DNA of 18,614 nucleotides from an uncultured archaeon (GCA_964632315.1 CAZWEM010000064.1:1-18614), one strand, 5' to 3'. Counted from the stretch's first letter, positions 1-18,295 are shown. The notes: generated by a model not told the origin, from the letters alone. Made by a program: numbers and translations.

Positions 1-345
1 GTAATTAAGATTCAAGATGCAAGTGAAGCTTACGCTGCTTGTGGAGGGTGTATATTTGGTTTCTGGTTCATACACAAGCTTCAACCTTGGATTGATGGAC
101 TTAATGGGATCACTGGAAGATCTTACAATGTAGAAAGTTTCATGAGAGCGGGTAAAGAAATAGTTGAAATGAAGAGAATTTTTAACGTCAATTGTGGGAT
201 AACAAAAAAAGATGATAATTTCGGTACTAGGTTCTCAATTCCTCTGGAAAAAGGTGGGTCAAAAAAAAATGTCCCCCCCTTAGAGCTATTATTAGAGAAA
301 TACTATGAAATAAGAAATTGGGATGCTCAAGGTAAACTAAGTTAA
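1..345 (+). CDS. aor: Aldehyde:ferredoxin oxidoreductase family protein, C-terminal part (5'-truncated by the window edge)
   Basis: Frame 1 is open from base 1: VIKIQDASEAYAACGGCIFGFWF...LNGITGRSY...RAGKEIVEMKRIFNVNCGITKKDD...EKYYEIRNWDAQGK. This matches the AOR C-terminal pattern (QD...C.F, TG, R.FN...G....DD, YY..R.WD..G). The track ORF 142..345 is only its tail. Confidence 0.85.
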   Translation, partial: VIKIQDASEAYAACGGCIFGFWFIHKLQPWIDGLNGITGRSYNVESFMRAGKEIVEMKRIFNVNCGITKKDDNFGTRFSIPLEKGGSKKNVPPLELLLEKYYEIRNWDAQGKLS

Positions 346-1247
346 AAATCTTTGAATTTAAAATCTGAAAAAATCTTTTTTATTTCTTCCTTTTTTTCTT
401 TAGATAACCATTCAGAATGAATATATGATGGAGTTAATCCAATCTTTTTTGGTTTAGTTAACCAGAGGGGATTATAAGGTAGTAATCCGATCTTTTTAAT
501 ATTGAGGGAATTCAAATAACTTGCGAGCGCTCTTAAGTTATCTCTTGTATCAGTTATTGATGGAATTAAGGGTATTCTCGGAAGAACATGAATTGTACCA
601 TTGTTAATGAGAGATTCAAAATTCTTTAAAATCCTTTCATTAGATATACTACAATACATTTTATGATTTTCAAGATTGAAAAGCTTTAAATCAAAATATA
701 TGAGATCAGCATAAGGTAATATTAATTTTTCAAATTTTTTTCGATTATAAAATCCACTTGTTTCAATGCAACTATGTATTCTTTCCTTCCTTAATTCCTT
801 CAATAGGTCGTGAACATAGTTAATGTGATAAAGAGGCTCTCCTCCTGAAAGCGTAACCCCACCACCAGAATTATCATAAAATATCTTATCTTGTAGGATT
901 ATTTGCATGAGATCAGCTATGGAATATTGCTTTCCTACAAACTTTAGTGCATTATTTGGGCAAACATCTACACACATACCACATAAATTACACTTGGTAC
1001 GGTCTATCCGAAATTCATAGGTAAACCTTATAGAATTCTGATCACATGAGGAAATACACTTTCCACATTCAGAACAGACATCTTCATCAAAAGAAATCTC
1101 TAATGATGGTGATTTTGTCTCAGGATTTTGACACCATACACAAGAGAGAGGACAACCTTTAAAGAAAACTAAAGTTCTAATCCCTGGACCATCGTCAAGT
1201 GCATTACGTTTTATGTCCACTATGAGTGTTTTAGTCCTTGACATCAT
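342..1247 (-). CDS. Glycyl-radical enzyme activating enzyme (radical SAM) with a 2x[4Fe-4S] ferredoxin insert
   Basis: DGPGIRTLVFFKGCPLSCVWCQNPE (CxxxCxxC), ferredoxin motifs CSECGKCISSC and CNLCGMCVDVCP, GGVTLSGGEP, IETSG and LLPY. It lies directly downstream of the GRE. Its stop codon overlaps the AOR stop by 4 nt. Confidence 0.96.
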   Translation of the reverse strand: MMSRTKTLIVDIKRNALDDGPGIRTLVFFKGCPLSCVWCQNPETKSPSLEISFDEDVCSECGKCISSCDQNSIRFTYEFRIDRTKCNLCGMCVDVCPNNALKFVGKQYSIADLMQIILQDKIFYDNSGGGVTLSGGEPLYHINYVHDLLKELRKERIHSCIETSGFYNRKKFEKLILPYADLIYFDLKLFNLENHKMYCSISNERILKNFESLINNGTIHVLPRIPLIPSITDTRDNLRALASYLNSLNIKKIGLLPYNPLWLTKPKKIGLTPSYIHSEWLSKEKKEEIKKIFSDFKFKDF

Positions 1248-1283: not shown

Positions 1284-4247
1284 TCATCTTGCTTTATATT
1301 CATGCCGTTCGATAATCTCTAATTGCATGTTTTTATTGAGTTTGGTGAAGTAAGCATTGTATCCCGAGACTCTTACTAATAGCCACCTGTAATCAATAGG
1401 ATTCGCCATCGCATCTCTCAATGTATCAGAGGATATGACGTTAAATTGCCACTGCATTCCATTCAAGTCAAAAAAGCTTTGAACATAGCTCGTGAAAAGA
1501 TCGAGTGTTTCCCCATGACTATCTCCTGGATGAGGTACTAATTTCACATTAAAAGAGGCATTATTAGCCATTTTAAGGTAATCTAATGCTGCTACACTTT
1601 TAATACTTGGAAGTAGTATATCAGTAGTACCTGGTGCAGGTGTTAAACCAGGAGTTAAAGCTTTTCCTTTTTTGCGCCCCGATGGTAAAGCGCCCGTTAA
1701 CATACCAAAACCTGTATGGTAACTTATTGACCAGTAACCAACTAAATACTTTCCACTTCTATAATTTTCAGCTGAATTGTAAATATTATAACAAAAATCA
1801 ATTATATCTTGAGCCAATTCAACGGTACCATCTTCACCAGAGCCAAATTTGGGCACTTGCTCGATCTTATGTAGAATTGACTCGTATCCTTCAAAATCGT
1901 TATCAATGGCATCCTTTAAGGTGGAAAAATTAAACTCTTTTTTATCATAGATAAGATCTTTAATAACTAATAAACTATCAACTACATCGGTTAACGCAAC
2001 CAGAGCAACTCCGGAAGTATTGTAGATTGCTCCACCTTGAACGAGATCCTTAGCTTTTTCTAAGGGTCCTTCATAAAAACTGGATAAAAGAGGTGTTGGA
2101 TGAATATATTTATGTGATTCTCCTAGAAAATTATTGATTTCAATTGATTGTTCCGCTAAATATTTTAATTGTGCTTTATAAGCATTGAGAAAATCTTCGA
2201 AATTTACAAAATTTATTCTTACATCCCCAGTTTCAATACCTGTCTTTTCTCCAGTCAACGGTATTATTCCGTTATTTAATGCCATTTCTAAAGGAGCGAC
2301 CATATTTAAAAGCATGCAATTGGTATGACCGTAATGTTTTCCGACAATAGTAGGCTCGACGCATCCAGTTGCAGCCCAATTTCTAGCATCCTCTAATAAA
2401 AATCCTTCATGAACTAATGCTTCGATCATTGTTTGATCATTATGAATGCTCGGGGATGCTCCCATGTTCATATTCACTTCAGTTAAACGACGTAAATATT
2501 CTTTTGAATTTATCCCTGAATAATATCGAGCATTCATATTAGGGTCTTGAAATCCTAGCATTTCATTCGTTTTTAAGATGATATATGACATGTCATTCAC
2601 AGCGTTCTTTCCTTCCCTGTCAATTCCTCCTACTGTGACCGTGTCATCCGAAGAACTACCGCCAAATAATTTCCAACCTACATTAGGCATTAAGGGATCA
2701 TGATCATTGATTCTAACAAAGAGTGACCCTACTAGTTCAATTGCTTTTTTTATGACTTCTTCTTTTTCTTCCTCGTTTTTTGCTTGCTTAATCTCTTTCA
2801 AAAAGAATGGTTGGAGCATCTGATCTAATCTACCAATTGATAGTGCTGAGTTTGCATTCTCGCAATGTAAGCAAACAAAACTCGTCCAAATAGACTGAAT
2901 TGCTTCATAAAGTGTCTCTGCAGGTTTGGCGGGTACCTTTGCGCATATTCGGGAGATTTCTTCCAATTCCTCAATTCTTTTTGCTTGTTTTGGATCATTG
3001 GGATCTAAAGTCTTAACAATTTTCAAGGCTTCTTCGTTTAAATTATTCGAATATGTTAAGACACCATCTAAAGCGATTTGAATTGCTTTATAGAAATTTT
3101 TTTCCTCCATAGATTTGGCATTTTCTTCTAATTTTTCTGCCTTATTTTTCATACTATCTATTCCTTCATTTAGGATCGTGGGGAATCCAGGAACAGTATG
3201 CGAGATAGCGTTCGTCTTCATCATAAAATAGAAAACCCAGCCTTCCTCAAGTTTTTGGGATTTAGGATAGTTAAATTTGGTCCTACAATATTCTCTAACA
3301 CTACGTTCCATCCAATACGGAAACACTTCTAAACTCAAGATATCGGCATCTTTATCAGAAATATCGTTAGGATTGAGCTCTCTCTCGCCTATTGTTTTAA
3401 GCTCTGGCCAAATAGCTGTAGCGATTAATTCGGGGTACATAGGTATTCCAACTTCTTTTGAGGTCGTAGAACCAGCAATGAGATGATTATCATGAATAAT
3501 TGGTTTTTTATGAGTCATTATATAATTTACTGCTCCCGCTTGACGTAGTTCGGGATCAAAAGGGTTTCCATCCTTATCTACCTCGAATCCATTCTCTTTA
3601 TGAAACTCTGTCACTAACTTTGCCCGTTCTACGCATATTGCTGGCTTTAAAGCAAATCGCCTGTTTTTCAAATATTTTAAACGAGGAAAATCATCGAGTG
3701 TATATTTTGCTAAATACGGATCATCAAGACCTTCAACATTATCAACCTTTCTATTCAGGCTTTCATTCTGTAGTTTTCTACTCTTCTCTCCACTGTCAAT
3801 ATCTTCGATAGGGTATATTAACCGATTTTCAGGTCCCTTATAATCCTTAATCTTTGCTCCCATAACGAGGGATGTGAGATACGAAAACTTGGTGAGATAT
3901 GACATATTGCCTGTATAGCCCATCTCATTAGTTAAAAGATAATCAAGTGATTCTTCGGCACTCTTGTTATAAAGATTCGCTAAAGTTTCCTTATCTTTAT
4001 AATAGATCGTGATATTTGGGTCTTCAATTTTTCCATCAGCTACGGTCATTTTCCCATCTTTGAAGATTACATTTACATTGACCGCATCATCCTTCGTAGT
4101 AAATTGATATTTCGCATTAAAAGTGAACCCGGTTTTTTCATTGTGAATTTCTCGTCTCATTTTTCTTCGAGTATCAAATATCATTGCCAGTAGGTTTAGT
4201 TGTTCCTTGAAGTTTTCAATCTCTTTATCAACATCTAAAGCTTGCAT
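1284..4247 (-). CDS. Glycyl radical enzyme (non-PFL, eliminase-like GCVE type) with an N-terminal SCP2-like lipid-binding domain
   Basis: Gly-radical loop LLVRVSGYNAYF (RVSGY at 1359-1373), Cys loop WAATGCVEP (GCVE at 2355-2366), SIGRLDQ, PKFG, GALPSGR and QFNV. Start placed at ATG 4247 (MQALDVD..., 987 aa) because the track's GTG at 4286 lies inside the promoter inverted repeat. Confidence 0.93.
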   Translation of the reverse strand: MQALDVDKEIENFKEQLNLLAMIFDTRRKMRREIHNEKTGFTFNAKYQFTTKDDAVNVNVIFKDGKMTVADGKIEDPNITIYYKDKETLANLYNKSAEESLDYLLTNEMGYTGNMSYLTKFSYLTSLVMGAKIKDYKGPENRLIYPIEDIDSGEKSRKLQNESLNRKVDNVEGLDDPYLAKYTLDDFPRLKYLKNRRFALKPAICVERAKLVTEFHKENGFEVDKDGNPFDPELRQAGAVNYIMTHKKPIIHDNHLIAGSTTSKEVGIPMYPELIATAIWPELKTIGERELNPNDISDKDADILSLEVFPYWMERSVREYCRTKFNYPKSQKLEEGWVFYFMMKTNAISHTVPGFPTILNEGIDSMKNKAEKLEENAKSMEEKNFYKAIQIALDGVLTYSNNLNEEALKIVKTLDPNDPKQAKRIEELEEISRICAKVPAKPAETLYEAIQSIWTSFVCLHCENANSALSIGRLDQMLQPFFLKEIKQAKNEEEKEEVIKKAIELVGSLFVRINDHDPLMPNVGWKLFGGSSSDDTVTVGGIDREGKNAVNDMSYIILKTNEMLGFQDPNMNARYYSGINSKEYLRRLTEVNMNMGASPSIHNDQTMIEALVHEGFLLEDARNWAATGCVEPTIVGKHYGHTNCMLLNMVAPLEMALNNGIIPLTGEKTGIETGDVRINFVNFEDFLNAYKAQLKYLAEQSIEINNFLGESHKYIHPTPLLSSFYEGPLEKAKDLVQGGAIYNTSGVALVALTDVVDSLLVIKDLIYDKKEFNFSTLKDAIDNDFEGYESILHKIEQVPKFGSGEDGTVELAQDIIDFCYNIYNSAENYRSGKYLVGYWSISYHTGFGMLTGALPSGRKKGKALTPGLTPAPGTTDILLPSIKSVAALDYLKMANNASFNVKLVPHPGDSHGETLDLFTSYVQSFFDLNGMQWQFNVISSDTLRDAMANPIDYRWLLVRVSGYNAYFTKLNKNMQLEIIERHEYKAR

Positions 4248-4275
4248 AATTATTAACTCGCTAAATTTAACTAAG

Positions 4276-4302
4276 TAATATATCACATCTTATGATATAT
4301 TA
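4276..4302. promoter_or_regulatory. Perfect inverted repeat TAATATATCA-N7-TGATATATTA; probable operator in the divergent GRE / CrtI-like promoter
   Basis: Arms 4276-4285 and 4293-4302 are exact reverse complements. The right arm overlaps a BRE/TATA-like GAAAGGTTAATATA on the minus strand (about 4296-4309). Confidence 0.6.
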
Positions 4303-4400
4303 ACCTTTCAATTATCCAAATTAGGCATAAAACCATTGTAATTATAGGTAATATTAAATTTAACTTCAACATTGAAATAAATATATTATAATTAGGTAGT

Positions 4401-5975
4401 ATGATCATGAGCGAAAATGAACTAGATACGATTGATGATTCGTATGACGTAGTCATCATCGGTGCGGGAAATGGTGGACTTGCGGCAACTGCTTTTCTTG
4501 CTCAAAAAGGCTTGAAGGTATTAATGTTAGAACAACATAACTTACCAGGTGGTGTTGCAACGAGTTTTGTGAGGGGGCGATTTGAATTCGAAACTTCCTT
4601 ACATGAACTCGCAAGTTATGGTCCTGAGTCCAATAAGGGTAGCATTAGACGAATGTTTGAGGATATGTTCCAATTAGACACTGAATTTGTTCAAGTTCCT
4701 GAAGCATATCGTTTAATTGTAACTCATCCTGAAGAGAAAATGGATGTTTCTATTCCATTTGGAGTTGAAAACATGATTGATGCTATTGAAAAAGAAGTAC
4801 CAGGTAGTAGGGAGTCTGTTAGAAACTTTTTTAGGTTAGCAAAGGAGATAGGGGAAGCTTTTTCTTATATAGGATCAACTGGGGGAAATCCAGATCAAAC
4901 CTTATTGCTTAAAGAACACGCGAATTTTCTTAAGACTGCAGCCTATTCAGCACAAGAAGTTGAGGATGCGTTGGGCATCCCTAAAAGAGCCCAAGATATT
5001 TTAAATGGATATTGGGCATATTTAGGCCTACCCATAAGCAGAATTAATTTTACAATTTATGCTGCGATGGTTGATAATTATGCAGATTTAGGAGGTTGGA
5101 TACCAACAAATAGATCTCATGGATATACAACAGCATTTGATGAAAAGATTAGGGAGTTTGGTGGAAGAATAGAATATAACACAAGAGTAGATAAGATTCT
5201 TGTCGAGAATGGTAAAATAGTAGGAGTGGAAACCGTTAATGGAGACAAAATTAAGACCAGTTATGTAATATGTAACGCATCTCCAACATTAACATATAAT
5301 AAACTAATTTCTCCCAAATCAGAAGTTCCGGAAATAGCCTATAAAGATGTAAATGCACGCATTCATGGATTGACGGGGTTTGTTATTTATGTTGGATTAG
5401 ATGCTTCAGCTGAAGAGTTAGGATTAAATGAATATGGTTATTTTATCATGGATAGCATGAATACGGAAGAAGTATATGATTCGTGGACATCTCTTCAACC
5501 ACCTGAAGGTCTTGCTTGCGTGGTTCTTAACAATGCACTCCCCGATTGTTCCCCTCCTGGGACGTGTATCTTAGATATAACTACGCTTTTTAGACCAGAA
5601 GCTTGGGAGAATGTAAAACCAGAAGATTATTATAATATTAAGAATGAAATCGCCGAAAAACTTTTAATTAAGTTCGAGAAAGCTACGGGGGCACCTATAA
5701 GAGAGCACATTGAAGAAATAGAAATTGCGACCCCAGTTACTTTCGCACGCTATACAAGGCATTATAAAGGAATTTTTTATGGATACGAGCCAGAATCATG
5801 GGATTCTATTGTCCCTAGATTAATGAGCATGGGAAAGGATGTATACATTGAAGGTTTAGAATTTGCAGGAGGATTTAACAGGCGTCTACATGGATATAGC
5901 AGTTCCATGGGAGATGGACTAATTTCGGCTCAATTAACTTATGCTAAAATAATGAAGGAGCGTGAGAAAGCATGA
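4401..5975 (+). CDS. Phytoene desaturase (CrtI) / all-trans-retinol saturase family FAD-dependent oxidoreductase
   Basis: Rossmann motif DVVIIGAGNGG, LEQHNLPGG, FVRGRFEF, C-terminal IEIATPVTFARY and EGLEFAGG; 524 aa. The start could also be ATG 4407. Confidence 0.88.
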   Translation: MIMSENELDTIDDSYDVVIIGAGNGGLAATAFLAQKGLKVLMLEQHNLPGGVATSFVRGRFEFETSLHELASYGPESNKGSIRRMFEDMFQLDTEFVQVPEAYRLIVTHPEEKMDVSIPFGVENMIDAIEKEVPGSRESVRNFFRLAKEIGEAFSYIGSTGGNPDQTLLLKEHANFLKTAAYSAQEVEDALGIPKRAQDILNGYWAYLGLPISRINFTIYAAMVDNYADLGGWIPTNRSHGYTTAFDEKIREFGGRIEYNTRVDKILVENGKIVGVETVNGDKIKTSYVICNASPTLTYNKLISPKSEVPEIAYKDVNARIHGLTGFVIYVGLDASAEELGLNEYGYFIMDSMNTEEVYDSWTSLQPPEGLACVVLNNALPDCSPPGTCILDITTLFRPEAWENVKPEDYYNIKNEIAEKLLIKFEKATGAPIREHIEEIEIATPVTFARYTRHYKGIFYGYEPESWDSIVPRLMSMGKDVYIEGLEFAGGFNRRLHGYSSSMGDGLISAQLTYAKIMKEREKA

Positions 5976-7204
5976 ATAAAGAAAATGAAGAAAAATTAGA
6001 AGTGACTGTAAAAAGCAACACGAAAGATTTATTTGCTTTTACCAAATTAGTAGCTGAAAGACAAAAAAGAATTGAGCGAGCATCTAGTGAACCAATTACA
6101 AAAGATCCAATTAATGATTTAGCCAGAAAAATACATCCAGATGTTCAATACTTAGTGATTGACGAAATCAAGGTTGAAACGAAATCTACAAAAACTTTTA
6201 AGCTCGTCCCTGATCCTGATTCAAGTACTAAAGAATTAGCAATTTTTAGATCGGGACAATATTTATCTCTAAAGGTAAAGGTAAATGATGTCACCATAAC
6301 TCGCCCATATTCTATCGCTTCATCGCCTAAAGATGCACTAAACGGATTTTATGAATTAACGATTAAAAAAGAGGAGCATGGCTTTTTAACCAGTTATATT
6401 TGGGATAATTGGAAGGTTGGTGCCAAAATTGAAAGTTCTGGTCCCGAAGGTTTTTTTTATTATGACCCTCTAAGAGATTTTAAACATATTGTTGGCATTG
6501 CTGGAGGATCGGGGATAACTCCTTTTAAATCGATTGCGCTGTCAATTATTGAAGGAAATATTGATGCAAGGTTAACCGTTTTATATGGAAGCAGTGATGA
6601 AGATGATATTATTTATTACGATGAATTTCAAGCTTTAGAGAAAGATTATCCTGATAAATTTAAATTTATTCACGTTTTAAGTTGCGAGGTCGTGTCTCTT
6701 GAAGGTTGTGAAACAGGGTTCATAACAAGTGATTTGATTGAAAAATATTGTGATGTTAAAACCAGTTCTTTCTTTATATGCGGACCGCAAATCATGTATA
6801 ATTTTTTGGATAATGAGATGGCCAAATTTGAATTACCCCCTAAAAAGATTCGAAAGGAAGCATTCGGTGAAGTTAAAGATGTCCTTTCTATCCCTGGTTA
6901 TCCTCAAGAATTAGCCGAAAAGACTTTTAAGATAACCGTGCACGTTGGTAATTACAGTAAAGTTATCCCTGCAATCGCCACAGAATCAATTTTAGTAGCA
7001 TTAGAACGAGCCAATTTTGCACCTCCAGCAAAATGTCGTTCAGGAGAATGTGGTTTTTGTCGATCTAAGTTAATTTCTGGAGAAGTGTTCATAAGTCCAA
7101 TTTCAGATTGGAGGCGCAAAGCTGATAAGAAATTCAATTACTTCCATCCGTGTTCGTCATATCCAACTTCAGATATTGAAATTGTGATCCCACGGACACT
7201 ATAA
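5972..7204 (+). CDS. FAD/NAD(P)-binding ferredoxin reductase with a C-terminal plant-type [2Fe-2S] domain (PaaE/KshB/PDR-like architecture)
   Basis: FRSGQY, RPYS, GPEGFF, AGGSGITP, CGP, EAFG and CRSGECGFC...C. ATGA overlap with the upstream gene indicates translational coupling. Confidence 0.92.
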   Translation: MNKENEEKLEVTVKSNTKDLFAFTKLVAERQKRIERASSEPITKDPINDLARKIHPDVQYLVIDEIKVETKSTKTFKLVPDPDSSTKELAIFRSGQYLSLKVKVNDVTITRPYSIASSPKDALNGFYELTIKKEEHGFLTSYIWDNWKVGAKIESSGPEGFFYYDPLRDFKHIVGIAGGSGITPFKSIALSIIEGNIDARLTVLYGSSDEDDIIYYDEFQALEKDYPDKFKFIHVLSCEVVSLEGCETGFITSDLIEKYCDVKTSSFFICGPQIMYNFLDNEMAKFELPPKKIRKEAFGEVKDVLSIPGYPQELAEKTFKITVHVGNYSKVIPAIATESILVALERANFAPPAKCRSGECGFCRSKLISGEVFISPISDWRRKADKKFNYFHPCSSYPTSDIEIVIPRTL

Positions 7205-7275: not shown

Positions 7276-8727
7276 TTGGTAATATCAAAATTGGATATTC
7301 GAATCAAATATGGAATTTCTGCATTCATTGTAATTCTGTTTCAATCCGCAATAAAACTACTCGGAGTTATTCTAACTGGAAGTTTAAGTTTTTTATCAGA
7401 AACGGTCGATACTCTCACTGATATCTTCTTTGTATTAATTACATTGTATTCTTTGTATGTCAGCATAAAACCAGCAGATTACGAGCACATGTATGGACAT
7501 GCTAAAATTGATGATGTTGCTGCGATAGTTCAAGGAATTATATTGGTTAATATCTATGTATTTCTAATAATTAATGCTATTCAAACATTATTAAGAGGGG
7601 TAGAAGTCATAGAAAATGCTAGGTTAGGATTTGAACTACTCATTATTTCATTTTCCGTTAATATAGTTTTTTCTAGATTATTAATTTGGCAGGGAAAGAA
7701 GAAGAATAGTCTTACTCTTCAATTACAAGGATTAAACTTGTTTCAAGATTCACTTAGAGCGATCTTAGTAATTTTCAATTTCATTATTGTGATTTTTTTT
7801 AATTTCACTCTTTTAGATCCTATTTTTAGCATAATATTATCAGTTTGGATAATAATAAGCGCCATAAAAATCGCAATTGAGGGAATCAAAGAAGTGATTG
7901 ATGTAAATCCAATTGATGCAATGATTTTGGAAAATTTGAAACTGCAAATCTTTAATTTGGAACATGTGAACGGGGTAAAAGATCTTAAAGTAAGAGCATC
8001 AGGTCGAAACTTATTTCTAGAAGTTCACTTATCAGTAGAAGATCATATCTCAATAGTGCATGCGGATGAAATAATAAAATCAATACGAACAATGAGTGAA
8101 ACTTATTTCCCGAATTTTATAGTTGAAACCATAATTGAAATGAATCCTTTAAGTGGAGAAGCCTCGTTAAGTGGAGAAATAATTAATTTATTACATTCAA
8201 TTATGAGTGAATTTGAAGAAATTGTTGAATTTAAGGATGTAAATGTTTTTAGCATTGAGGATAGATATTTTTTGAGTTTAATTATTATTGTAGATAATGA
8301 TCTCACACTTGATCAAGCTCATAATGCCTCATCCAAATTAGAGGCTTTACTAAAAAAGCAGGTTCCACTTATTTCACGGGTTATAACTCATATAGATTCT
8401 GAAGTAAAAGTAAAAGAACCAGAGCAAATTGTATGCGAAGCAATTAGCAATGAAGATATGACTGAAATAAGAGAAATCATTGGAGATATATTAAAGAAAG
8501 ACCCTCATGCAAAAGGTTATCATGGATTAGAGTGCTGGAATGCTTTAAATAGATGCATATTAGAGCTACACGTTTTTTTTGATGGTTCTCTGAATATCAC
8601 TGACGTACATAATTACGTGAGTTTACTTGAAGAGGAAATAAGAGAACACGTGAAATTATTTAATTTAAATGACATCATCTTACATTCTGAGCCCGAAAAA
8701 GATCGCACGAATGGAGTGATCTTTTAA
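7276..8727 (+). CDS. Cation diffusion facilitator (FieF/YiiP-like) with three tandem C-terminal cytosolic domains
   Basis: Hydrophobic N-terminal domain with DTLTD, KPADYEHMYGHAK and NLFQD, then three repeats of the CDF dimerisation domain ending IEMNP, THID and LHSEP. TTG start. Confidence 0.9.
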   Translation: MVISKLDIRIKYGISAFIVILFQSAIKLLGVILTGSLSFLSETVDTLTDIFFVLITLYSLYVSIKPADYEHMYGHAKIDDVAAIVQGIILVNIYVFLIINAIQTLLRGVEVIENARLGFELLIISFSVNIVFSRLLIWQGKKKNSLTLQLQGLNLFQDSLRAILVIFNFIIVIFFNFTLLDPIFSIILSVWIIISAIKIAIEGIKEVIDVNPIDAMILENLKLQIFNLEHVNGVKDLKVRASGRNLFLEVHLSVEDHISIVHADEIIKSIRTMSETYFPNFIVETIIEMNPLSGEASLSGEIINLLHSIMSEFEEIVEFKDVNVFSIEDRYFLSLIIIVDNDLTLDQAHNASSKLEALLKKQVPLISRVITHIDSEVKVKEPEQIVCEAISNEDMTEIREIIGDILKKDPHAKGYHGLECWNALNRCILELHVFFDGSLNITDVHNYVSLLEEEIREHVKLFNLNDIILHSEPEKDRTNGVIF

Positions 8728-8756
8728 TATATAAAAAAGATTTGATAAAGATAAGG

Positions 8757-9860
8757 TTAAAAGTCAAATTTATATTGCCTTAATCCTAACTCTTTCTGCA
8801 TGGTCTTGATGTCATTTTGCAAGCTCTTATTTAATGGTATGCCCGCTTTTTTACGATTTTGTTCAGCCATATATTCTTTTTCTCCAGCAGTGTATATCTT
8901 TTTCTCATTAGGATCTAATTTAGCGCTCCTGAGACCTCGCATAATATTTCCAGCGGTTTTTATAAATTGATCTTTTCCTATAAACGCTTCAGTATTAATT
9001 GCTAAAAAGAAATGCCCAACTTTCAATCGTTTTTGACCGTTTTCTTCTATTCCAAGAGTATCGCGTAAAAAAATTCCATTCTGCAAGGCTGCGGATAATA
9101 ATTCTACGACCGTGGCATATCCGTAACCTTTATATCCAGCTGTTTCTTCTCCTTTACCTCCAAGAGGTAACAAAGCGGCTTTTCTTTGAAGCATATCAGA
9201 TAATATTTGATTTGGATCTGTTATGAATTCTCCATTATCATTTATAACTGTATTCTGTGGCATTGGTTTGTTAATTCTACTATTTGCTTCGACTTTTCCT
9301 CTCTGAATTATGCTTGTGGCACAATCAATTAGAAAGGGAAAGTTTTCATCTGTAGGTGCTCCAATTGTTAATGGATTAGTACCTAACATCGGTTCTACTC
9401 CGAATGTGGGTGGGATCGAAGGTCTTGCATTTGTGACTGCTAAACCAATCATCCCCTCTTTTATTGCCATTAAGGAATAATAACCAGCAATTCCGAAGTG
9501 GGTAGAATTTCTCACAGCTACAGCCCCTAAACCATACTTTTTAGCCTTTTCAATCGCATTTTCCATTGCCCTATGGGCAATAACATGGCCCATACCGCAA
9601 TTACCATCCCAAAGAGCTGTGGTTGGTCCGTCTTTAATAACATCAATTTTTGTATTTACTTCGTAAATACCTTGTTTTATCCTATCATAATACATTTTAC
9701 ATCTTTGAATTCCATGAGAATCTATTCCTCTTAAATCGGAGGTGATTAGCACATTAGCGATGATTTTTGCATCATCATTTGGTATTCCTAACCCAATAAA
9801 AACATCTTTCATGAAATTTTCAAGAATTTCTGCTTCTAAATATACAACCTCATCCGTCAT
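8757..9860 (-). CDS. Ldh_2 family (malate/L-lactate/L-sulfolactate dehydrogenase-like) oxidoreductase
   Basis: SDLRGIDSHG, NSTHFGIAGYY, GTNP, DCATS, GYKGYG, GHFFLAI and GEKE. Confidence 0.92.
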   Translation of the reverse strand: MTDEVVYLEAEILENFMKDVFIGLGIPNDDAKIIANVLITSDLRGIDSHGIQRCKMYYDRIKQGIYEVNTKIDVIKDGPTTALWDGNCGMGHVIAHRAMENAIEKAKKYGLGAVAVRNSTHFGIAGYYSLMAIKEGMIGLAVTNARPSIPPTFGVEPMLGTNPLTIGAPTDENFPFLIDCATSIIQRGKVEANSRINKPMPQNTVINDNGEFITDPNQILSDMLQRKAALLPLGGKGEETAGYKGYGYATVVELLSAALQNGIFLRDTLGIEENGQKRLKVGHFFLAINTEAFIGKDQFIKTAGNIMRGLRSAKLDPNEKKIYTAGEKEYMAEQNRKKAGIPLNKSLQNDIKTMQKELGLRQYKFDF

Positions 9861-9996
9861 AATAATATCTTCATATTCCTCTTGTATTTAATCACAATAA
9901 TCAATGCTACTTCTAAAGCTTTGAGCATGTATTATTCAAATATTATCGAATTTTTTGTATTCATTCTTGTTCTCAATACTCATGTTATTTAATGAT

Positions 9997-10146
9997 ATGA
10001 AAACTAAAGTGAGTGGTCGATTTTTTAGAGAAATCGAACTTGATTCTGAAGGGAATGATGAAGTAGTATACGTATTTCCAGATACCAAAGAATTCATCTC
10101 CATATTGAGAAGAGACTTGAATAAAAAGTTAATATCTGACACCTGA
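9997..10146 (+). CDS. Possible small hypothetical protein (49 aa, MKTKVSGRFFREIELDSEGNDEVVYVFPDTKEFISILRRDLNKKLISDT)
   Basis: Fills an otherwise empty intergenic gap and has protein-like composition from the ATG at 9997 (in frame with track ORF 9955..10146). No recognised motif. Confidence 0.4.
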   Translation: MKTKVSGRFFREIELDSEGNDEVVYVFPDTKEFISILRRDLNKKLISDT

Positions 10147-10252: not shown

Positions 10253-10888
10253 TTAAATTAAACGATTGAATAATTCAAATTTTTTGTTTAATCCTTCAAA
10301 AAGGAATTTTAGTGAAAGAGGAATACCCCAGATTAGTAATACGAAAAACATGCTCCATTCTAGTACGGCTTGGGGCATTATTGGAAACAAAAGTGCTACT
10401 GATATGTGTCCTAGCATCATAAAATATCCAAAATGTTTAGAAAAGATTTTTAATCGTAATATGAGGAATCCAAATATTATTTCAGCAAATAATAGAGATA
10501 CAAAAACTGTAATCGCAAAACTTATGTGTAAGATGTAAGAAAGGTCAACATTAAAAATTCCTACTAAAAAGAATGAGCCAGTCATGAGTTCCAACAGTGT
10601 AAATCCAAAGATTGAAAGAAAACTATATATTCGATTCTCTTTTGCTTTATGATGTATTTTTCGAAATAACTTGATAAAAAAGAAACTTAAAAATGAAGCT
10701 GAAACCATAAAAGTAACGTTAATTGCCATTGGATATTGTGTATAACGAATAGAGCCGAGTTCACTGATTGTGTTTACTAGCATGCTATAATCACTGAAAC
10801 CATAAGCTAGAAATAGCGATACAATTAATCCAAGCAAGAAAAGTGGAATCCCTATTACAGAAATGATGTTAACGATTGTTTTATTCAT
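10253..10888 (-). CDS. DUF998-like (Frag1/DRAM/Sfk1-related) multi-pass membrane protein
   Basis: About six hydrophobic segments, YS...NTISELG motif, VGIF...H and a C-terminal EW. Confidence 0.75.
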   Translation of the reverse strand: MNKTIVNIISVIGIPLFLLGLIVSLFLAYGFSDYSMLVNTISELGSIRYTQYPMAINVTFMVSASFLSFFFIKLFRKIHHKAKENRIYSFLSIFGFTLLELMTGSFFLVGIFNVDLSYILHISFAITVFVSLLFAEIIFGFLILRLKIFSKHFGYFMMLGHISVALLFPIMPQAVLEWSMFFVLLIWGIPLSLKFLFEGLNKKFELFNRLI

Positions 10889-10898
10889 GATTTTGATG

Positions 10899-10932
10899 TT
10901 AGAATTATCTCTAAAACTTAGAGAAATTCTAA
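10899..10932. promoter_or_regulatory. Near-perfect inverted repeat just upstream of the DUF998-like gene
   Basis: TTAGAATTATCTCTAA-AAC-TTAGAGAAATTCTAA gives 15 paired positions with one bulged A, 10 nt upstream of the ATG at 10888. Confidence 0.45.
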
Positions 10933-11259
10933 AAATGTATTAATTTTAATTATCTAATAAAGTAATGATATTTATGTTTATATTTATCTATAATAATCCG
11001 TCGCAATAATACAAGATATTCCGAAAAGCCAAATTTAAAAATTATAACCTCTGATATCTAAAGTATTATTCGATTAATCCAATAAGGAAGTGTAATAGTT
11101 GGAATTTATCATTATTAATTTCAAATGGCATTTTTCTTTACAATTTAAACTCAATTCTTTAAATTCATAATAATTTATTATCAAAGCTTAAATATTCCCA
11201 ATTTAAATTGAAATAGTGCTATTTTTAGACTTAATTATTTGATTAAGAGGTGATATATC

Positions 11260-12815: not shown

Positions 12816-13421
12816 TTATTTTGTTGAGTAAATAAATCTTAGGAGTTTATCTTTGTCCTCTTCTGCGTAATCTATACCTATCCTCTTTTCTAAAGAAATT
12901 CGATACTGCTCCTTTTCTAATCCTTCTGCAAAATACAATTTTGAATCAGGGGAACAAGAATCTTTTCCGTTAAATAAATCTTTTGTAATGTTTAATGCCT
13001 GACAAAGCTTACTCGGTCCATCAACCAAGTTTTTAAAATTTTTCCCAACAAGGACATTCCTATTCTTTTTCATTAGATCAATGCCTTCAATTGGATAAAG
13101 TTGCCTGATAAAAACAGCACAAGGGATTCCAATTGGTTCGGTAATCACGTTTAGACAAAAGTTGATCCCATAAATGTAGTAAACATAAAGAGTACCAGGT
13201 TTCATATACATGATCTCGGTCTTTTTAGTTCTCTTTGCTCCAAAACAATGGCTTGCTTTATCCTTAACACCGAGATATGCTTCTACTTCTATGATTTTGC
13301 CCACCATTTTTCCTTCCTCGGTTTCTCTCACCAAAAATTTCCCTAATAATTGTTCCGCAACTAATCGAGTGTTATACTTAAAAAATGATCGAGGTAATCT
13401 CGTAAAATTTTCGGAAACCAT
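12816..13421 (-). CDS. mpg: DNA-3-methyladenine glycosylase (MPG/AAG family)
   Basis: LLGKFLV, IIEVEAYLG..DKASH, PGTLYVYYIYG..FCLNV, GPSKLCQAL and RIGI. Confidence 0.95.
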   Translation of the reverse strand: MVSENFTRLPRSFFKYNTRLVAEQLLGKFLVRETEEGKMVGKIIEVEAYLGVKDKASHCFGAKRTKKTEIMYMKPGTLYVYYIYGINFCLNVITEPIGIPCAVFIRQLYPIEGIDLMKKNRNVLVGKNFKNLVDGPSKLCQALNITKDLFNGKDSCSPDSKLYFAEGLEKEQYRISLEKRIGIDYAEEDKDKLLRFIYSTK

Positions 13422-13501
13422 AAAATTATACCTTTATTATACATACAAATTAATTATTATACTAATAAATTTTGAATAAAATATTAAGGGGATATAGAAC
13501 C

Positions 13502-14590
13502 ATGAAAGCACCTGAACGAATTTTAAAAACAATTAATCATGAAGAACCAGACAAAGTACCCGCATTCGAAAGCGCATTCACAAATAATACAATTATGGAG
13601 CATTACGGAATAGATCCTCGCACTGCGGGAGGTTATAAAGGGCTTTACGAATTTTCTCGAAGAGTAGGAATCGATCTAGTACTTAGTATCGGTAGCTTGT
13701 TTCCTAAAAAATTTCTTAAGAGGGGGCAGGGTTTTATCGATGAATATGGAAGGCATATGAAATTTGAGACCTATGAAGATGGAACTCAAATATTAGCATA
13801 TCATGGGGGGCACTTCAAAAATTTCGAAGATTATGAAAGTTGGGGACAACCAGACCCCAATAATCCAGCAAGATTAAAGCAATTTTTTGATGGGAGAGAA
13901 GTACAAAAACAATTGAACGATGAGGTATTTTCTATTCCCGCTGTTGGAGCATTGATGGAGTGTTCGTGGGAAGGTTTTGGCCTAGAAGCATTTTCGAGAA
14001 TCCTCAGAAATCCTAAACACACTCAAAAAGTATTCGATGATCGAGGTAAATTTACCTTGGAAGTAGTGAAGATAATGGCAGAAAATGAGGCTAAAATGGT
14101 TCTTTTATGGGATGATTACGGTTTCAAGAATGGTCTTTTCATGCGACCAGATTTATATCGAAAATACATATTTCCTTGGATTAAACGGATATGTGATGCT
14201 GCTCATAAACGAGATTGTAAAATATTGCTTCATTCAGATGGTGATTTAATTGAAATATTCGATGACATTATCAAATGTGGCGTAGATGCTTTAAATCCAA
14301 TTGAATCAACGACAGCTAATCCAGACTATGATATTTTTAAGTTAAATGAAAAATATGGAAAAAAAATTACTTTTGTGGGCAATTTGAGCCCAATAATGCT
14401 AGCAATTGGGGAAATTTCAGAAATTGAAAATTATGCCAAGCGATTAATTAGAGAATTAGCCCCTGGAGGAGGTTACATTTTTAGTTCCGGTCATAGTATC
14501 AATCCAGCAATCACGATTGATAGGTTTGAAGCAATGCAGAATATAAGGAGGAAATTTGGCAGCTACCCTATTAATGTTCCTAACAATTAA
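13502..14590 (+). CDS. Uroporphyrinogen decarboxylase / MtaA-CmuA methyltransferase family protein
   Basis: HEEPDKVP, DEYG, WDDYGFKNG, LHSDG, GVDALNPIE and GGGYIFSSGHSI. ATG at 13502 is preferred over the track's TTG at 13472. Confidence 0.85.
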   Translation: MKAPERILKTINHEEPDKVPAFESAFTNNTIMEHYGIDPRTAGGYKGLYEFSRRVGIDLVLSIGSLFPKKFLKRGQGFIDEYGRHMKFETYEDGTQILAYHGGHFKNFEDYESWGQPDPNNPARLKQFFDGREVQKQLNDEVFSIPAVGALMECSWEGFGLEAFSRILRNPKHTQKVFDDRGKFTLEVVKIMAENEAKMVLLWDDYGFKNGLFMRPDLYRKYIFPWIKRICDAAHKRDCKILLHSDGDLIEIFDDIIKCGVDALNPIESTTANPDYDIFKLNEKYGKKITFVGNLSPIMLAIGEISEIENYAKRLIRELAPGGGYIFSSGHSINPAITIDRFEAMQNIRRKFGSYPINVPNN

Positions 14591-14720
14591 TCGAAAATTT
14601 TCACATTGACTTCTAACTTGTTTACCATTTGTAATATCACTGGAATATATAAAACTATTTTAAAATGAAATTACGGTTTATTTAAAGAGATCTTAAATAC
14701 CTCAATAAATTAATTCATTT

Positions 14721-15536
14721 ATGTTTGAAGAAGTTAACCAAAGCAAGACTTTCCGTATTATTTTAGTCTTGATTTCAGATATCCTACTTACGATATTCAT
14801 AGTTTTTGTTGTTTTTACAAATATTTGGCTCGATCTGATTGAAATTCTAACATTAGGAATGATTAATGTCACTCTTATTGTAAATCTTGGATTGATAGCA
14901 ATTAATGGATCAATTATTTTTCTTAGAAATGAGATCAGACCTAAGGATGTTGGTCTTATCAAATCAAAAATATTACCTGCCATTATAATTATTGCAATTA
15001 TATGGGGGTTAATTCAACTTTTTGATCTGATCGTCATGCTTCTTCAGATTCAAACCATCCAAGTAAATCCCAGCTGGGAAATAAATGGAATTTTACCTTA
15101 TTTAGGTGATTTTGCTTCTCAAATCTTCGGAAACGCGTTATATGAAGAAATTATTTTCAGAGGGTTTTTAATCTCCCAATTTTATATTTTATTTAGGAAC
15201 AAGGTTAAAAACTCAAAAATTACATTACTACTAAGTCTTTTTGTTTCTCAGGGATTATTTGCTCTAAAACATATCCCTATTCGATTATTAGGAGGAGTTA
15301 TGGGAGTAGATTTAATACTAAATTTGTTATTATTATTAGGTTTAGGGCTAGTTTTTGCTATCATATACCTACGCACCAATAACTTGTTCATCACAATTGG
15401 GATCCATTCTCTTTATAATGTTTCGTTGTCGTTATTTAATGTGGAAGGAGTTTTTGGGTTGCTTATCCTTACTATAATCCTATTAATAGTTTGGCCAAAA
15501 ATTGAAACAAAATTTCTTTTTGAATTAAAGAAATAA
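14721..15536 (+). CDS. CPBP (CAAX/Abi) family intramembrane glutamic endopeptidase
   Basis: Multi-pass membrane protein with EEIIFRG, FALKH and HSLYN motifs. Confidence 0.92.
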   Translation: MFEEVNQSKTFRIILVLISDILLTIFIVFVVFTNIWLDLIEILTLGMINVTLIVNLGLIAINGSIIFLRNEIRPKDVGLIKSKILPAIIIIAIIWGLIQLFDLIVMLLQIQTIQVNPSWEINGILPYLGDFASQIFGNALYEEIIFRGFLISQFYILFRNKVKNSKITLLLSLFVSQGLFALKHIPIRLLGGVMGVDLILNLLLLLGLGLVFAIIYLRTNNLFITIGIHSLYNVSLSLFNVEGVFGLLILTIILLIVWPKIETKFLFELKK

Positions 15537-15623
15537 ATCTAACGTAAAAGATGTTCTATTTAAGCCGCTAATAAAAATTATAGCATTGTGTTCTTTTCTG
15601 ATTAGAATATGGCAGAAAGTTTC

Positions 15624-16454
15624 TCATTTTTCCTGATTTAAATTCTTAATAAGAAAGGAAACCAATTTTAAATTTGAGGCAAAGAATGGAAATCTCAAAT
15701 TGATTGAAAGTTCTCCATTAATCTCATCACCGTTAATAAACATCATTTTCCCACCTGCTTCTTGTAGAATCAAGAAACCTGCTGCGACATCTACTAATCG
15801 GTTTGAGTCTCTCAAATTTATGAATGCTTCCATGCTTCCCTTTGCAATTTGGCACAGAGTCAAAGCACTGCTTCCTAAAATCCTTACTCGATGAAATTGC
15901 TGCAAAATTGATCGAATATTGTCAATATTTTTGAACATGCTTTTTTTAGAGAGGTTTATCTCACAATAACATCGATCATTGATACCTAAATCTGAAACAT
16001 ATATTTCCTCTTCATTGAGATATGCACCTTCCCCTTTCACTGCCCAAAAAATATCCTTGGTGACTAAATCTAATACGACCGCTTTTTTTATACTATTCGC
16101 TGTACTACCAATCGCATAAGCTATGGAAACCGAACAATATGGAATACCTCTGGCTGCATTATTTGATCCATCAATCGGATCGACGATCAATACATTCTTG
16201 TTTTTCAATGCCAACTCCTTATTGCCAATGTACTTTTCGCCTATTTCTTCGCTTATGAGTAAGATGTTTATTGAAGCCTTTTCTAAAGTTTCAATTAGAA
16301 TTTTTTCAGCAAGTAAATCAATCTGCATCGAAATATCTCCACCTGCACCTCTTGAAAACTTCTGACTGGCTTTGCTAGTTCCTAAAATCGGATGTACCTC
16401 ATCATAAATATTGAGAGCTAATTGTTTTAAAAAATCTATCTCCAATTCCATCAA
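15624..16454 (-). CDS. suhB: Inositol monophosphatase / fructose-1,6-bisphosphatase (archaeal SuhB-type)
   Basis: GAGGD...IDLLAE, ISEE, VDPIDGSNN, RILGSSAL and RLVDVAAG. Confidence 0.92.
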   Translation of the reverse strand: MMELEIDFLKQLALNIYDEVHPILGTSKASQKFSRGAGGDISMQIDLLAEKILIETLEKASINILLISEEIGEKYIGNKELALKNKNVLIVDPIDGSNNAARGIPYCSVSIAYAIGSTANSIKKAVVLDLVTKDIFWAVKGEGAYLNEEEIYVSDLGINDRCYCEINLSKKSMFKNIDNIRSILQQFHRVRILGSSALTLCQIAKGSMEAFINLRDSNRLVDVAAGFLILQEAGGKMMFINGDEINGELSINLRFPFFASNLKLVSFLIKNLNQEK

Positions 16455-16513: not shown

Positions 16514-17245
16514 TTACTTTGGTGATTCTGTTTTTCGGTTTCTTTCGACAATCCATTGGTCTATAATCATTTCTTGAAATTCATCTTTATTTTTGACATC
16601 ATATTCACAATGAATTGTTGATTTTGGGACCCACAATTCTTGATCGGAATCAATAGCAATGAGTAATGCTTTTGGACTTTCTGCTTTAATTTTAGCGTTA
16701 ACATCAATAACCTCAACCGAAGTAGGATATACTGTTGTTTCGACTACTTTTAGTCCATCTCGTGAAGTTATATTTTCTGTAAATAAGCTATAATCTTCTG
16801 CTACTATAGGACTCCTTCCTTTTCCTCTAGATTTTGGTGGACTGCTAGTAGCAAATTCAATTTTCTCGATTAATAGATGTTCAATTAACAATTTCAGAAA
16901 ATGAACATTAGGGAAACGTAATTTTTTTTTGTAAGAACCCAATTGTACCAACAATACTTCTCGAGATTCATCCAACCAGCCAACTTGTATTTCACCTCTC
17001 CGATCTTTAAAAACGTGATACCCTCTCCAAATTGCACTTCTTTTATTTAGGACTTCTAAAATACAAATCATTTCTTCTACCAAAATTTTAACTGATTTTC
17101 CTTCCCCCTTAGATATTTGTTCCCATTCGCCCTCATCATTTCTATTAATGCAACTTAACAAGATGTAAGGTTCTTTTTTTGAACGACTAGAAATAATTAG
17201 ACTCGTTTTTCTTCCAAAAAAGGTTTTATCGTGAGAGTCTACCAT
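16514..17245 (-). CDS. Hypothetical two-domain protein; possible PC4/Whirly-like N-terminal domain and a small beta-rich C-terminal domain
   Basis: Long clean ORF. The N-terminal region has a strand-strand-strand-helix pattern (...GEWEQISKGEGKSVKILVEEMICILEVL), followed by a low-complexity linker and an ESPKALLI...ELWVPKS...IDQWI domain. The fold is inferred only. Confidence 0.75.
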   Translation of the reverse strand: MVDSHDKTFFGRKTSLIISSRSKKEPYILLSCINRNDEGEWEQISKGEGKSVKILVEEMICILEVLNKRSAIWRGYHVFKDRRGEIQVGWLDESREVLLVQLGSYKKKLRFPNVHFLKLLIEHLLIEKIEFATSSPPKSRGKGRSPIVAEDYSLFTENITSRDGLKVVETTVYPTSVEVIDVNAKIKAESPKALLIAIDSDQELWVPKSTIHCEYDVKNKDEFQEMIIDQWIVERNRKTESPK

Positions 17246-17289
17246 GCTTCAGTCTAAAATCAGTAAATTTAATTAGAATGAGGAATGAT

Positions 17290-17595
17290 TTATTGGAGCT
17301 CTATTTCGACCAATACCGTTTCGGGTATTTGTATTTTCATAATTAAATGCATGCTCCGCTCATTGGCGACTATATCAATTAATCTTTTATGAATGCGCAT
17401 TTCAAATTTAGCCCATTGATTAGTTCCTTGACCGCTTACATTTTTCATTACAGGGACTTTTAAATGCTTACTTGGGAGGGGAATTGGGCCATATTTCTTT
17501 ATTCCCTGGTTTTGACAAACGCTTTCTATTTGGTCGCAAACAGAACTCAGCGCCTCTAAGTTGGTCGAACTTAGTCTGATTCTCGCTTTTTGTAT
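17290..17595 (-). CDS. rpsJ: Ribosomal protein uS10 (S10p) homologue, divergent, apparent ATA start; not in the ORF track
   Basis: Manual translation: (M)QKARIRLSSTNLEALSSVCDQIESVCQNQGIKKYGPIPLPSKHLKVPVMKNVSGQGTNQWAKFEMRIHKRLIDIVANERSMHLIMKIQIPETVLVEIELQ*, 101 aa. KARIRL, GPIPLP, EMRIHKRLIDI and P..V.VEI are uS10 hallmarks. SD GGTGA at 17603-17607 lies 7 nt before the ATA. Confidence 0.93.
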   Translation of the reverse strand: MQKARIRLSSTNLEALSSVCDQIESVCQNQGIKKYGPIPLPSKHLKVPVMKNVSGQGTNQWAKFEMRIHKRLIDIVANERSMHLIMKIQIPETVLVEIELQ

Positions 17596-18061: not shown

Positions 18062-18295
18062 ATGTCAAGATCAGCTGGAATCTTTGCTCTACTAATGGGA
18101 ATAATAGCTTTAATATTGGAACTAGTAATTAAGTTTGCATTCTCCTTTATTTATGCAGACATCGTCTTTTACATAATAGTCGCCCTTGCTATAATTGCCG
18201 GTATAGTTGGAATCGCACGTGATAGTTCAAAAAGCTATGCCTTGGGTGGTTTGATTCTGGGAATTATTGCATTAGTTTTATGGTTCGTGATATAA
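18062..18295 (+). CDS. Small membrane protein with three transmembrane segments (hypothetical)
   Basis: 77 aa with three hydrophobic helices; SD-like GAAGGT upstream; T-rich tract downstream. Confidence 0.8.
   Translation: MSRSAGIFALLMGIIALILELVIKFAFSFIYADIVFYIIVALAIIAGIVGIARDSSKSYALGGLILGIIALVLWFVI

Follow-up and report, generated by a model that had tools for sequence, protein, structure and literature searches.

A gene for a glycyl radical enzyme with an N-terminal SCP2-fold domain

An 18,614-nucleotide stretch of DNA from an uncultured archaeon (GCA_964632315.1, CAZWEM010000064.1:1-18614; hereafter the window) carries on its minus strand a gene for a glycyl radical enzyme (GRE) whose catalytic core is preceded by a domain modeled with the SCP2 (sterol carrier) fold, and we refer to the product as SCP2-GRE. 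The minus-strand open reading frame (ORF) at 1284–4286 runs for 1000 codons without a stop. We assigned the coding sequence to 1284–4247 (987 aa plus the stop; ATG at 4245–4247), a start that gives the same length and N-terminus as in database homologues and an alignment from residue 1 with 21 relatives. The gene product is a GRE of the PFL2/dehydratase-like branch, and sequence features of the superfamily are found, on the same strand: a PFL-like barrel domain (PF02901, residues 190–848, at 1704–3680; Pfam E 6e-160), a C-terminal RVxG glycine radical domain (PF01228, residues 865–968, at 1344–1655; Pfam E 5e-22) with Gly962 of RVSGY at 1362–1364, a Cys-loop cysteine, and a cognate radical SAM activase. 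The activase is encoded by the next gene, 36 bp downstream (342–1247, minus strand), as a 301-aa GRE-activating enzyme with a ferredoxin-type insert (298 bits with TIGR02494, whose cut-off is 174).

The Pfam PFL-like match begins at residue 190, which leaves about 185 residues ahead of the GRE core; an earlier reading made from the DNA alone (the sequence-only reading) had recognized this extension and put its length at about 150 aa, which was too short. That reading had also placed an SCP2-like segment at roughly nt 3860–4215 (residues ~11–130), and three lines of evidence now agree with it: Pfam matches within the family, the topology of an AlphaFold2 (AF2) model, and Foldseek. The window copy itself scored 16.5 bits against Pfam SCP2 (E 0.011), below the gathering cut-off of 21.3. 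The same model was matched by 20 of 22 family members (E ≤ 1; best E 7.5e-6), with the SCP2-related alkylsulfatase C-domain being matched by 2 members. A feature search of a protein atlas returned weak SCP2 likeness only, and a sequence profile of the N-terminal 200 residues found no match among PDB sequences, so that the likeness to SCP2 rests on the fold and on a weak profile.

An AF2 model of residues 1–200 was confident across residues 1–90 (predicted local distance difference test, pLDDT, of 82–92), and the order of its elements (H-H-E-E-E-E-H-H-E-H) is that of SCP2: a pair of helices is followed by four strands, two more helices that are short, the fifth strand and, at the C-terminal end, a long helix. 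When this model was compared with the PDB, as the sequence-only reading had suggested, the first 45 Foldseek matches were almost all of the SCP2 fold, with E-values down to 3e-5, a template modeling score (TM) by target of 0.6–0.7, and sequence identities of 11–17%. These matches included UbiJ-SCP2 (E 3e-5), A. fulgidus AF1534, the SCP2-like domains of the alkylsulfatases SdsA1 and PisA1, and the insect SCP2, yeast SCP2 and human MFE-2 SCP2L domains (TM by target 0.67–0.70); one match that is not a lipid carrier, the GNAT acetyltransferase 2ozg, aligned to part of the model. The SCP2 fold of residues 1–130 (3858–4247, minus strand) can thus be regarded as established at the level of structural models, and we are nearly certain that the protein is a GRE with a true SCP2 domain. 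By analogy, this domain may bind lipid. The SdsA1/PisA1 C-domain, MFE-2 SCP2L and UbiJ share its fold (Foldseek E 3e-5 to 5e-4), and in SdsA1/PisA1 and MFE-2 a lipid-holding domain is likewise joined to the catalytic module of an enzyme acting on amphiphilic substrates. In SCP2-GRE, unlike in any of these proteins, the domain forms the N-terminal part of a radical enzyme, and its identity to them is only 11–17%.

The SCP2 domain is predicted to dock on the catalytic barrel

In the isolated N-terminal AF2 model, confidence was low across residues 131–185. In the full-length model (predicted TM score 0.85) only residues ~131–160 stayed weak, whereas residues 161–190 reached a pLDDT of 91–93, against 37–62 in isolation. 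The true linker would therefore span ~30 residues. We accordingly divide this stretch into a flexible linker (residues ~131–160, at 3768–3857), which has low confidence in both models, and a conserved N-terminal arm of the core (residues ~161–185, at 3693–3767), whose block-mean pLDDT accounts for the rise, both on the minus strand.

A complex was predicted between the SCP2 domain (residues 1–135) and the core (residues 186–987), with a family alignment for each and three controls. The interface score (ipSAE) was 0.85, and the best of the three controls scored 0.00; among 80 solved complexes 58 scored as high, as did 2 of 110 mismatched pairs, a comparison that applies only approximately here since our own alignments were used. 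Docking runs shared at least 73% of contacts, and the partner pLDDT was 80 or higher. Within the SCP2 domain, the predicted contacts fall in residues 32–43 and 97–130 (helix D, strand 5 and the C-terminal helix) and include invariant columns of the domain (Glu33, Asn36, Phe43, Leu105, Asn107, Gly113, Thr119, Ser122 and Tyr123). The motif GNMSYLTKF, which had been read as an SCP2 signature, lies within this predicted interface. On the core side, the contacts cover residues 277–339, just before the strand that bears His350, and loop positions next to three other active-site segments (521–526, ahead of Asp534/Asp535; 664–665, behind the Cys loop; Leu850, behind Trp839/Ile841). The SCP2 domain is thus predicted to be docked in a fixed position on the catalytic barrel, and the modeled contacts fit a location at an opening of this barrel.

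The active site is dehydratase-like, with a distinctive pocket

Active-site residues of SCP2-GRE were read off a printed alignment with glycerol dehydratase (GD), and conservation was recorded in 113 homologues of 950–1010 aa. Cys629, Glu631 and Gly962 are invariant in this set, as are His350 (in NAISH, at 3198–3200), which aligns with the general acid His164 of GD, and Asp534-Asp535 (in the GGSSSDDT strand, at 2643–2648), which occupy the position of GD Tyr339/Gln340. The Cys loop reads Cys629-Val-Glu631 (the CXE motif, within GCVEP, at 2355–2363; all on the minus strand). It bears out the earlier description of a single-cysteine GCVE loop in place of the Cys-Cys pair of PFL, and the model for PFL proper was not matched (127 bits with TIGR01255, which requires 994). 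SCP2-GRE keeps GD Cys433, Glu435 and His164 (as Cys629, Glu631 and His350), and positions that contact substrate in GD are replaced (His281 by Ser467, Ser282 by Ala468, Tyr339 by Asp534, Asp447 by Asn643, Tyr640 by Trp839 and Ser642 by Ile841); a further change turns Gln340 into Asp535. By alignment count, Asp534/535 also correspond to Phe344 of propanediol dehydratase (PD), and they share their position with Phe395 of CutC. The mapped residues are invariant or nearly so across the homologues, as is a distinctive pocket set of Asp534, Asp535, His638, His641, Asn643, Trp839 and Ile841, which points to one conserved, distinctive function.

The closest PDB relatives of the core were A. fulgidus PflD (381 bits), HpyG (8ID1; 379), PD (366), HypD (361), GD (358) and CutC (345), with MasD (203), TutD (175) and PFL (96) more distant. 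The NCBIfam equivalog models were all missed (score/cut-off: HypD 436/1100, CutC 423/1050, HpsG 366/1000, HpfG 359/1000), and so was the subfamily model TIGR01774 (PFL2-3; 535/678). With scores below every equivalog cut-off, SCP2-GRE stands apart from the known small-substrate GREs (HypD, CutC, GD and PD), in line with what had been proposed for it.

A June 2026 review describes the CXE glutamate as hydrogen-bonding the substrate hydroxyl in all GRE eliminases, and GD His164 as protonating the leaving hydroxyl (PMC13450708). The same source records that GRE isomerases and HPAD retain CXE as well, and that in E. coli YbiW and PflD chemistry of the CXE type breaks a cyclic ether C-O bond (PMC13450708). 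CXE is therefore necessary for an eliminase assignment, and not sufficient. The sequence-only reading had taken the GCVE loop as a mark of eliminases; the motif and the His164 equivalent are both there, whereas exclusivity to eliminases does not hold.

Three known systems offer useful comparisons. GD and PD (PDB 1R8W and 5I2A) share with SCP2-GRE the barrel and glycine domain (358–367 bits), the CXE loop, the general acid (His164/His166) and an adjacent gene for a dedicated activase of the ferredoxin type; an aldehyde product is likely common to both. They differ from SCP2-GRE, which has ~185 extra N-terminal residues with the SCP2 domain and replacements at the GD substrate-contact positions. 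A. fulgidus PflD (PDB 2F3O), the best PDB sequence match, is likewise archaeal and uncharacterized, with a disputed function; it shares the His and the CXE motif and likewise has Ala where GD has Ser282, but is 776 aa long, lacks an SCP2 domain, carries Asn/Gln at Asp534/Asp535, and keeps the Asp447 equivalent. In E. coli, the isomerases YbiW and PflD act on anhydro-sugar phosphates by opening a cyclic ether; they lie at a similar sequence distance from SCP2-GRE (272–320 bits) and set a precedent for a CXE GRE that breaks an ether C-O bond beside a carbinol radical. Unlike SCP2-GRE, they have no lipid-binding domain; their substrates are soluble sugar phosphates, and their product is an isomer instead of an elimination product.

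SCP2-GRE is an accessory gene of Asgard archaea and sulfate reducers

In a protein search, SCP2-GRE matched more than 120 clusters of ~988 aa at 62–94% identity, from Loki-, Thor-, Hermod-, Frey- and Promethearchaeota, Desulfatibacillum and Desulfomonilia. Among GTDB species representatives the N-domain is encoded at 61 loci, about 45 of them Asgard; the others belong to Thermodesulfobacteriota (Desulfobacterales, Desulfosudaceae, Desulfatibacillum alkenivorans DSM 16219), two Bacteriovoracaceae metagenome-assembled genomes (MAGs) and one Pseudomonadota MAG. Two carriers are cultured, D. alkenivorans DSM 16219 and D. aliphaticivorans (assembly GCA_000429905.1). The gene is accessory and patchily distributed in Asgard archaea and Thermodesulfobacteriota, with 18 carriers among 201 genomes sampled in the phylum, 32 among 81 in the family (the window's genome included) and 15 among the 27 other genomes of the window's genus. 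In a quick maximum-likelihood tree whose root was set by two long-branched sister subfamilies, all 37 Asgard rows formed one clade (SH-aLRT 98) nested among bacterial rows. This nesting suggests a single transfer between Desulfobacterota and Asgard archaea, and by this tree the archaea appear to have acquired SCP2-GRE from sulfate reducers.

A profile search for distant relatives, covering 1.8 billion representatives, found further SCP2-GRE fusions with identities of 47% (P0142), 46% (P0128), 43.5% (P0213) and 33% (P0188). In the last of these, a metagenomic protein of 985 aa, GGAMQP replaces TGCVEP and GISGY replaces RVSGY, so that both the catalytic Cys and Glu are lost; judged from these replacements, P0188 may be an inactive or regulatory paralogue. 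The search also returned dozens of stand-alone proteins of ~150 aa that match the N-domain profile (among P0135–P0271, E 1e-8 to 1e-18), many with 30–50 additional N-terminal residues; the two that were scanned (P0141 and P0145) had no Pfam match. A stand-alone SCP2-like relative whose locus was looked up sits on a contig of just 774 bp.

Recurrent neighbors of SCP2-GRE

To describe gene context we used the 61 species-level loci and the window, clustering the ORFs of the fetched loci together with those of the window (67 carrying a GRE); the clustering covered ORFs of at least 90 aa, and clusters recurring in at least four loci were annotated. The activase gene directly follows that of the GRE in 33 loci. 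In 21 loci, a tungsten-type aldehyde:ferredoxin oxidoreductase (AOR; AFOR_N plus AFOR_C, ~600 aa) is encoded no more than three genes away from the GRE, in both Asgard and bacterial genomes (L047, L056, L062 and L063). In the window, the C-terminal 114 aa of such an AOR are encoded convergently at 1–345 (plus strand; AFOR_C E 1e-22), the gene being cut by the contig end.

A crotonase adjoins the GRE in 15 loci. Archaeal and bacterial GRE-adjacent crotonases are 40–46% identical, against 23–29% to a non-adjacent crotonase of the same locus, which indicates one subgroup of crotonases that travels with the GRE. In the window's genome, a second locus (L073, contig C19:13000-32900) holds a 799-aa GRE of GCVEP type that has no SCP2 domain and is 29% identical to SCP2-GRE (13969–16368, plus strand). 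It is flanked by two crotonase genes (10289–11143 and 12863–13732, both minus strand) that are the best orthologues of the subgroup (69% and 63% identity), and the crotonase subgroup may thus serve more than one GRE family.

In six bacterial loci, a 602-aa acyl-CoA dehydrogenase (ACAD) with an Acyl-CoA_dh_C domain is encoded directly upstream of the GRE; in one of these (L003) the stop of the ACAD gene (8200–10008) overlaps the GRE start at 10001. The best PDB matches of this ACAD were FadE5-type enzymes and 6IJC, which we take to be DmdC. An NCBIfam scan gave no specific name for the crotonase, the ACAD or the AOR. One Desulfobacterales MAG (L063) has crotonase, AOR and 602-aa ACAD genes between two SCP2-GRE genes, all on one strand, the fullest form of the putative pathway cluster among the loci.

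Other neighbors of SCP2-GRE include a MaoC dehydratase, a short-chain dehydrogenase/reductase (SDR) and TetR regulators. Sister-family loci carry acyl-CoA ligase, 4HBT thioesterase, TetR and VTT/DedA membrane protein genes; small ORFs flanking the GRE at one such locus (L074) were not SCP2-like. Genes of the VTT/DedA family, which is linked to lipid flipping, were seen at L005:7005-7829 (Asgard) and at L076:4932-5549 (sister family, from groundwater). In a Desulfomonilia MAG (L007), an Ldi-family (linalool dehydratase/isomerase) gene at 2619–4541, a GMC oxidoreductase gene and a glycerol kinase/G3P dehydrogenase pair lie within 10 kb of a TetR-GRE-activase unit.

Upstream of SCP2-GRE in the window, a divergent plus-strand pair (4401–7204) encodes a CrtI/carotenoid-isomerase-like FAD enzyme (4401–5975) and an FNR-like FAD/NAD/2Fe-2S reductase (5972–7204), and the intergenic gaps flanking SCP2-GRE are 36 bp and 153 bp. 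This pair occupies positions −1 and −2 in 17 Loki-type loci, always within a longer conserved block (cation efflux, Ldh_2). We therefore treat it as possible synteny only and set it aside as a GRE partner, all 17 loci lying within a synteny block of close relatives. At L020 and L030, a second CrtI-like plus FNR-like pair lies downstream of the AOR, such that pairs flank the GRE-activase-AOR unit on both sides, and a link stays possible.

Elsewhere in the window, a plus-strand gene at 7276–8727 encodes a 483-aa cation-diffusion-facilitator transporter in which ZT_dimer was matched in three stretches instead of the usual one. A scan of the whole window for tRNA and Rfam families gave no match. 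At its right end, more than 1 kb (17450–18614) holds no ORF above 77 aa, no tRNA and no Rfam match, and the GC content of 17001–18000 is ~30%.

A lipid-handling eliminase as the proposed function

The neighbors (AOR, crotonase, ACAD, acyl-CoA ligase and TetR) are in keeping with an aldehyde product and with a place in lipid or acyl-CoA metabolism. We propose that SCP2-GRE is a lipid-handling eliminase that makes an aldehyde, an overall mechanism to which we give a rough probability of 0.55; the family would probably turn a fatty, hydroxyl-bearing substrate into an aldehyde. Considered separately, a hydrophobic or lipid substrate is the somewhat better bet, and elimination giving an aldehyde is marginally favored. 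An amphiphilic substrate would have its hydrophobic tail held by the SCP2 domain, which would feed the hydroxylated head into the active site, where the Cys629 thiyl radical would take a hydrogen from the carbinol carbon. Glu631 would deprotonate the hydroxyl, and His350 would protonate the oxygen leaving group (water or alkoxide) on the neighboring carbon. The aldehyde so released would be oxidized to the acid by the neighboring tungsten AOR, and the acid, as its CoA thioester, would pass to the co-inherited crotonase and, in bacteria, also to the FadE5/DmdC-like ACAD.

As candidate substrates we consider long-chain 1,2-diols, glycerols with one acyl or alkyl chain, and archaeol-type ethers. 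No single class stands out: a long-chain 1,2-diol or monoacylglycerol-type diol is improbable as a specific assignment, and an alkylglycerol or other glycerol-ether lipid is somewhat less probable again. The sequence-only reading had named cleavage of the latter as one attractive option, and ether-lipid cleavage is chemically plausible by analogy. Here the SCP2 domain would hold the chain, and a radical on the free carbinol would expel the neighboring hydroxyl or alkoxide to give a 3-alkoxypropanal-type aldehyde; with an alkylglycerol, a GD-like dehydration would give 3-alkoxypropanal. AOR would then form the acid, which after CoA activation by a CoA ligase could be processed by the DmdC-like ACAD and the crotonase, freeing the alkyl chain as an alcohol. 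DmdC and DmdD act on 3-methylthiopropionyl-CoA and provide a model for this release step. In its full form, in which SCP2-GRE would be the first lipid-acting GRE and would, independently of O2, dehydrate glycerol-ether lipids (1-O-alkylglycerols, archaeol-type) or cleave their ether bond, this proposal is an unlikely one.

Several observations weigh against a lipid-handling eliminase. Polar residues abound in the pocket (Asp534, Asp535, His638, His641, Asn643 and His844), which would also suit a small polar substrate, and CXE is not exclusive to eliminases, being present in isomerases and HPAD. Lipid binding by the SCP2 domain, a tunnel and the enzyme activity are all putative, as is the equation of the predicted docking site with the mouth of the substrate channel. 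The AOR neighbor, recorded in 21 loci, supports a carbonyl product indirectly. Asgard and bacterial AORs are 33–35% identical, compared with 28–32% to paralogues, so that AOR orthology across the domains is not clear; the association nonetheless recurs in both groups. Several loci, Desulfatibacillum among them, carry the GRE alone, and in the window's genome the matching crotonases lie beside the different, SCP2-less GRE and not beside SCP2-GRE. The lipid-eliminase interpretation offered earlier is supported in part: it is upheld in the SCP2 fold, the predicted docking, the CXE and His residues, the separation from known equivalogs, and the neighbors, and is weakened in that CXE does not single out eliminases.

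Alternative explanations

The polar pocket bears most directly on an alternative in which the SCP2-like domain is a structural cap or gate on the channel, as the BSS-beta plug is, and the substrate is small and polar (a diol, amino alcohol or sugar derivative). The pocket residues are mostly polar or charged; the docking is moreover predicted to be fixed and to run through invariant residues, accessory elements control channel access in GREs, and the partial Foldseek alignment to GNAT acetyltransferase 2ozg could be read in the same way, as SCP2-like folds play structural roles in some GNAT-type enzymes. We nevertheless consider a cap unlikely, given that true lipid binders (UbiJ, MFE-2 SCP2L, insect SCP2) are among the nearest folds, as is the alkylsulfatase domain that recruits substrate, and that neighbors of lipid/acyl-CoA type (crotonase, ACAD, acyl-CoA ligase, thioesterase, MaoC, TetR) occur in two domains of life. 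Those same neighbors could instead speak for a CoA-thioester substrate, with a radical step on a hydroxy- or otherwise functionalized acyl-CoA in a modified beta-oxidation route. SCP2 domains bind acyl-CoAs, and eukaryotic SCP2 is fused to beta-oxidation enzymes (MFE-2 SCP2L being among the fold matches); in bacterial loci the crotonase and ACAD genes lie directly upstream in the GRE operon, with the stop/start overlap at L003, and sister-family loci hold acyl-CoA ligase and thioesterase genes. This route is quite unlikely in our estimation: the AOR association indicates a free aldehyde, GRE pockets are small and buried, and the 2026 review includes no eliminase, isomerase or decarboxylase GRE in which a CoA ester is attacked by the thiyl radical (PMC13450708).

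Hydrophobic substrates would also suit an alkyl- or benzylsuccinate synthase-type enzyme, in which the SCP2 domain would hold an alkane for addition to fumarate. The family is found in the alkane/alkene degraders D. alkenivorans and D. aliphaticivorans and in hydrocarbon-rich sediments, a domain for hydrophobic ligands would be suitable for an alkane, and Hermodarchaeota, which have SCP2-GRE family members (P0011 and P0050), carry GREs labeled Ass/Bss on 29–33% identity (PMC8163825). The core, however, scores 203 bits with MasD and 175 with TutD against 345–381 with eliminases and isomerases, and it retains the Glu and His acid/base pair of dehydratases. All solved X-succinate synthases have small subunits resembling high-potential iron-sulfur proteins (HiPIP-like), whereas the 36- and 153-bp gaps leave no room for such genes beside the GRE, and no conserved HiPIP-like neighbor was found among clusters of ORFs of at least 90 aa. 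Nor did the clusters present in at least four loci, those that were annotated, include a methylalkylsuccinyl-CoA mutase or carboxyltransferase, and the AOR neighbor would go unexplained; we judge fumarate addition to be very unlikely. A role in the biosynthesis or remodeling of membrane lipids (e.g. ether-lipid formation) in place of catabolism has in its favor that Desulfatibacillum produces mono- and dialkyl glycerol ethers (PMC5552659, PMC11150832), that the ether-forming enzyme Ger is sn-1-specific, leaving other steps open (PMC13159169), and that DUF2229, the Pfam domain used here as a proxy for Ger/PlsA-type ether-lipid synthases, is present in the window's genome. The partners AOR, crotonase and ACAD are nevertheless catabolic, and the patchy distribution of the gene (18/201, 32/81 and 15/27 genomes in phylum, family and genus) makes such a role highly improbable. 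Co-occurrence with Ger/PlsA-type synthases proved uninformative, DUF2229 being present in 71 of 81 family genomes and not tracking with the GRE (32 of 81).

Implications

To our knowledge, the GREs characterized so far all act on a small soluble molecule or a hydrocarbon. Full-text literature searches combining GRE with SCP2, sterol carrier or ether lipid returned nothing relevant. The 2026 review mentions no lipid-binding domain for GREs, and it lists no archaeal PFL-like GRE with an assigned function (PMC13450708). We regard SCP2-GRE as an eliminase-type GRE whose domain architecture is new and whose substrate class is probably new.

The family couples an eliminase-type active site with a lipid-carrier domain that is predicted to be docked on the barrel, with 60–90% identity kept between Asgard archaea and Desulfatibacillum, and with two cultured Desulfatibacillum strains carrying the gene the question is open to direct testing. 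If the substrate is a lipid, GRE chemistry would be widened to that substrate class. If it is a lipid diol or glycerol ether, the finding would bear on how inert lipids are broken down without oxygen in sediments, and the 'alkyl/benzylsuccinate synthase' label on Asgard GREs would be corrected; on the glycerol-ether reading, the enzyme would provide a route for anaerobic recycling of ether lipids in sediments.

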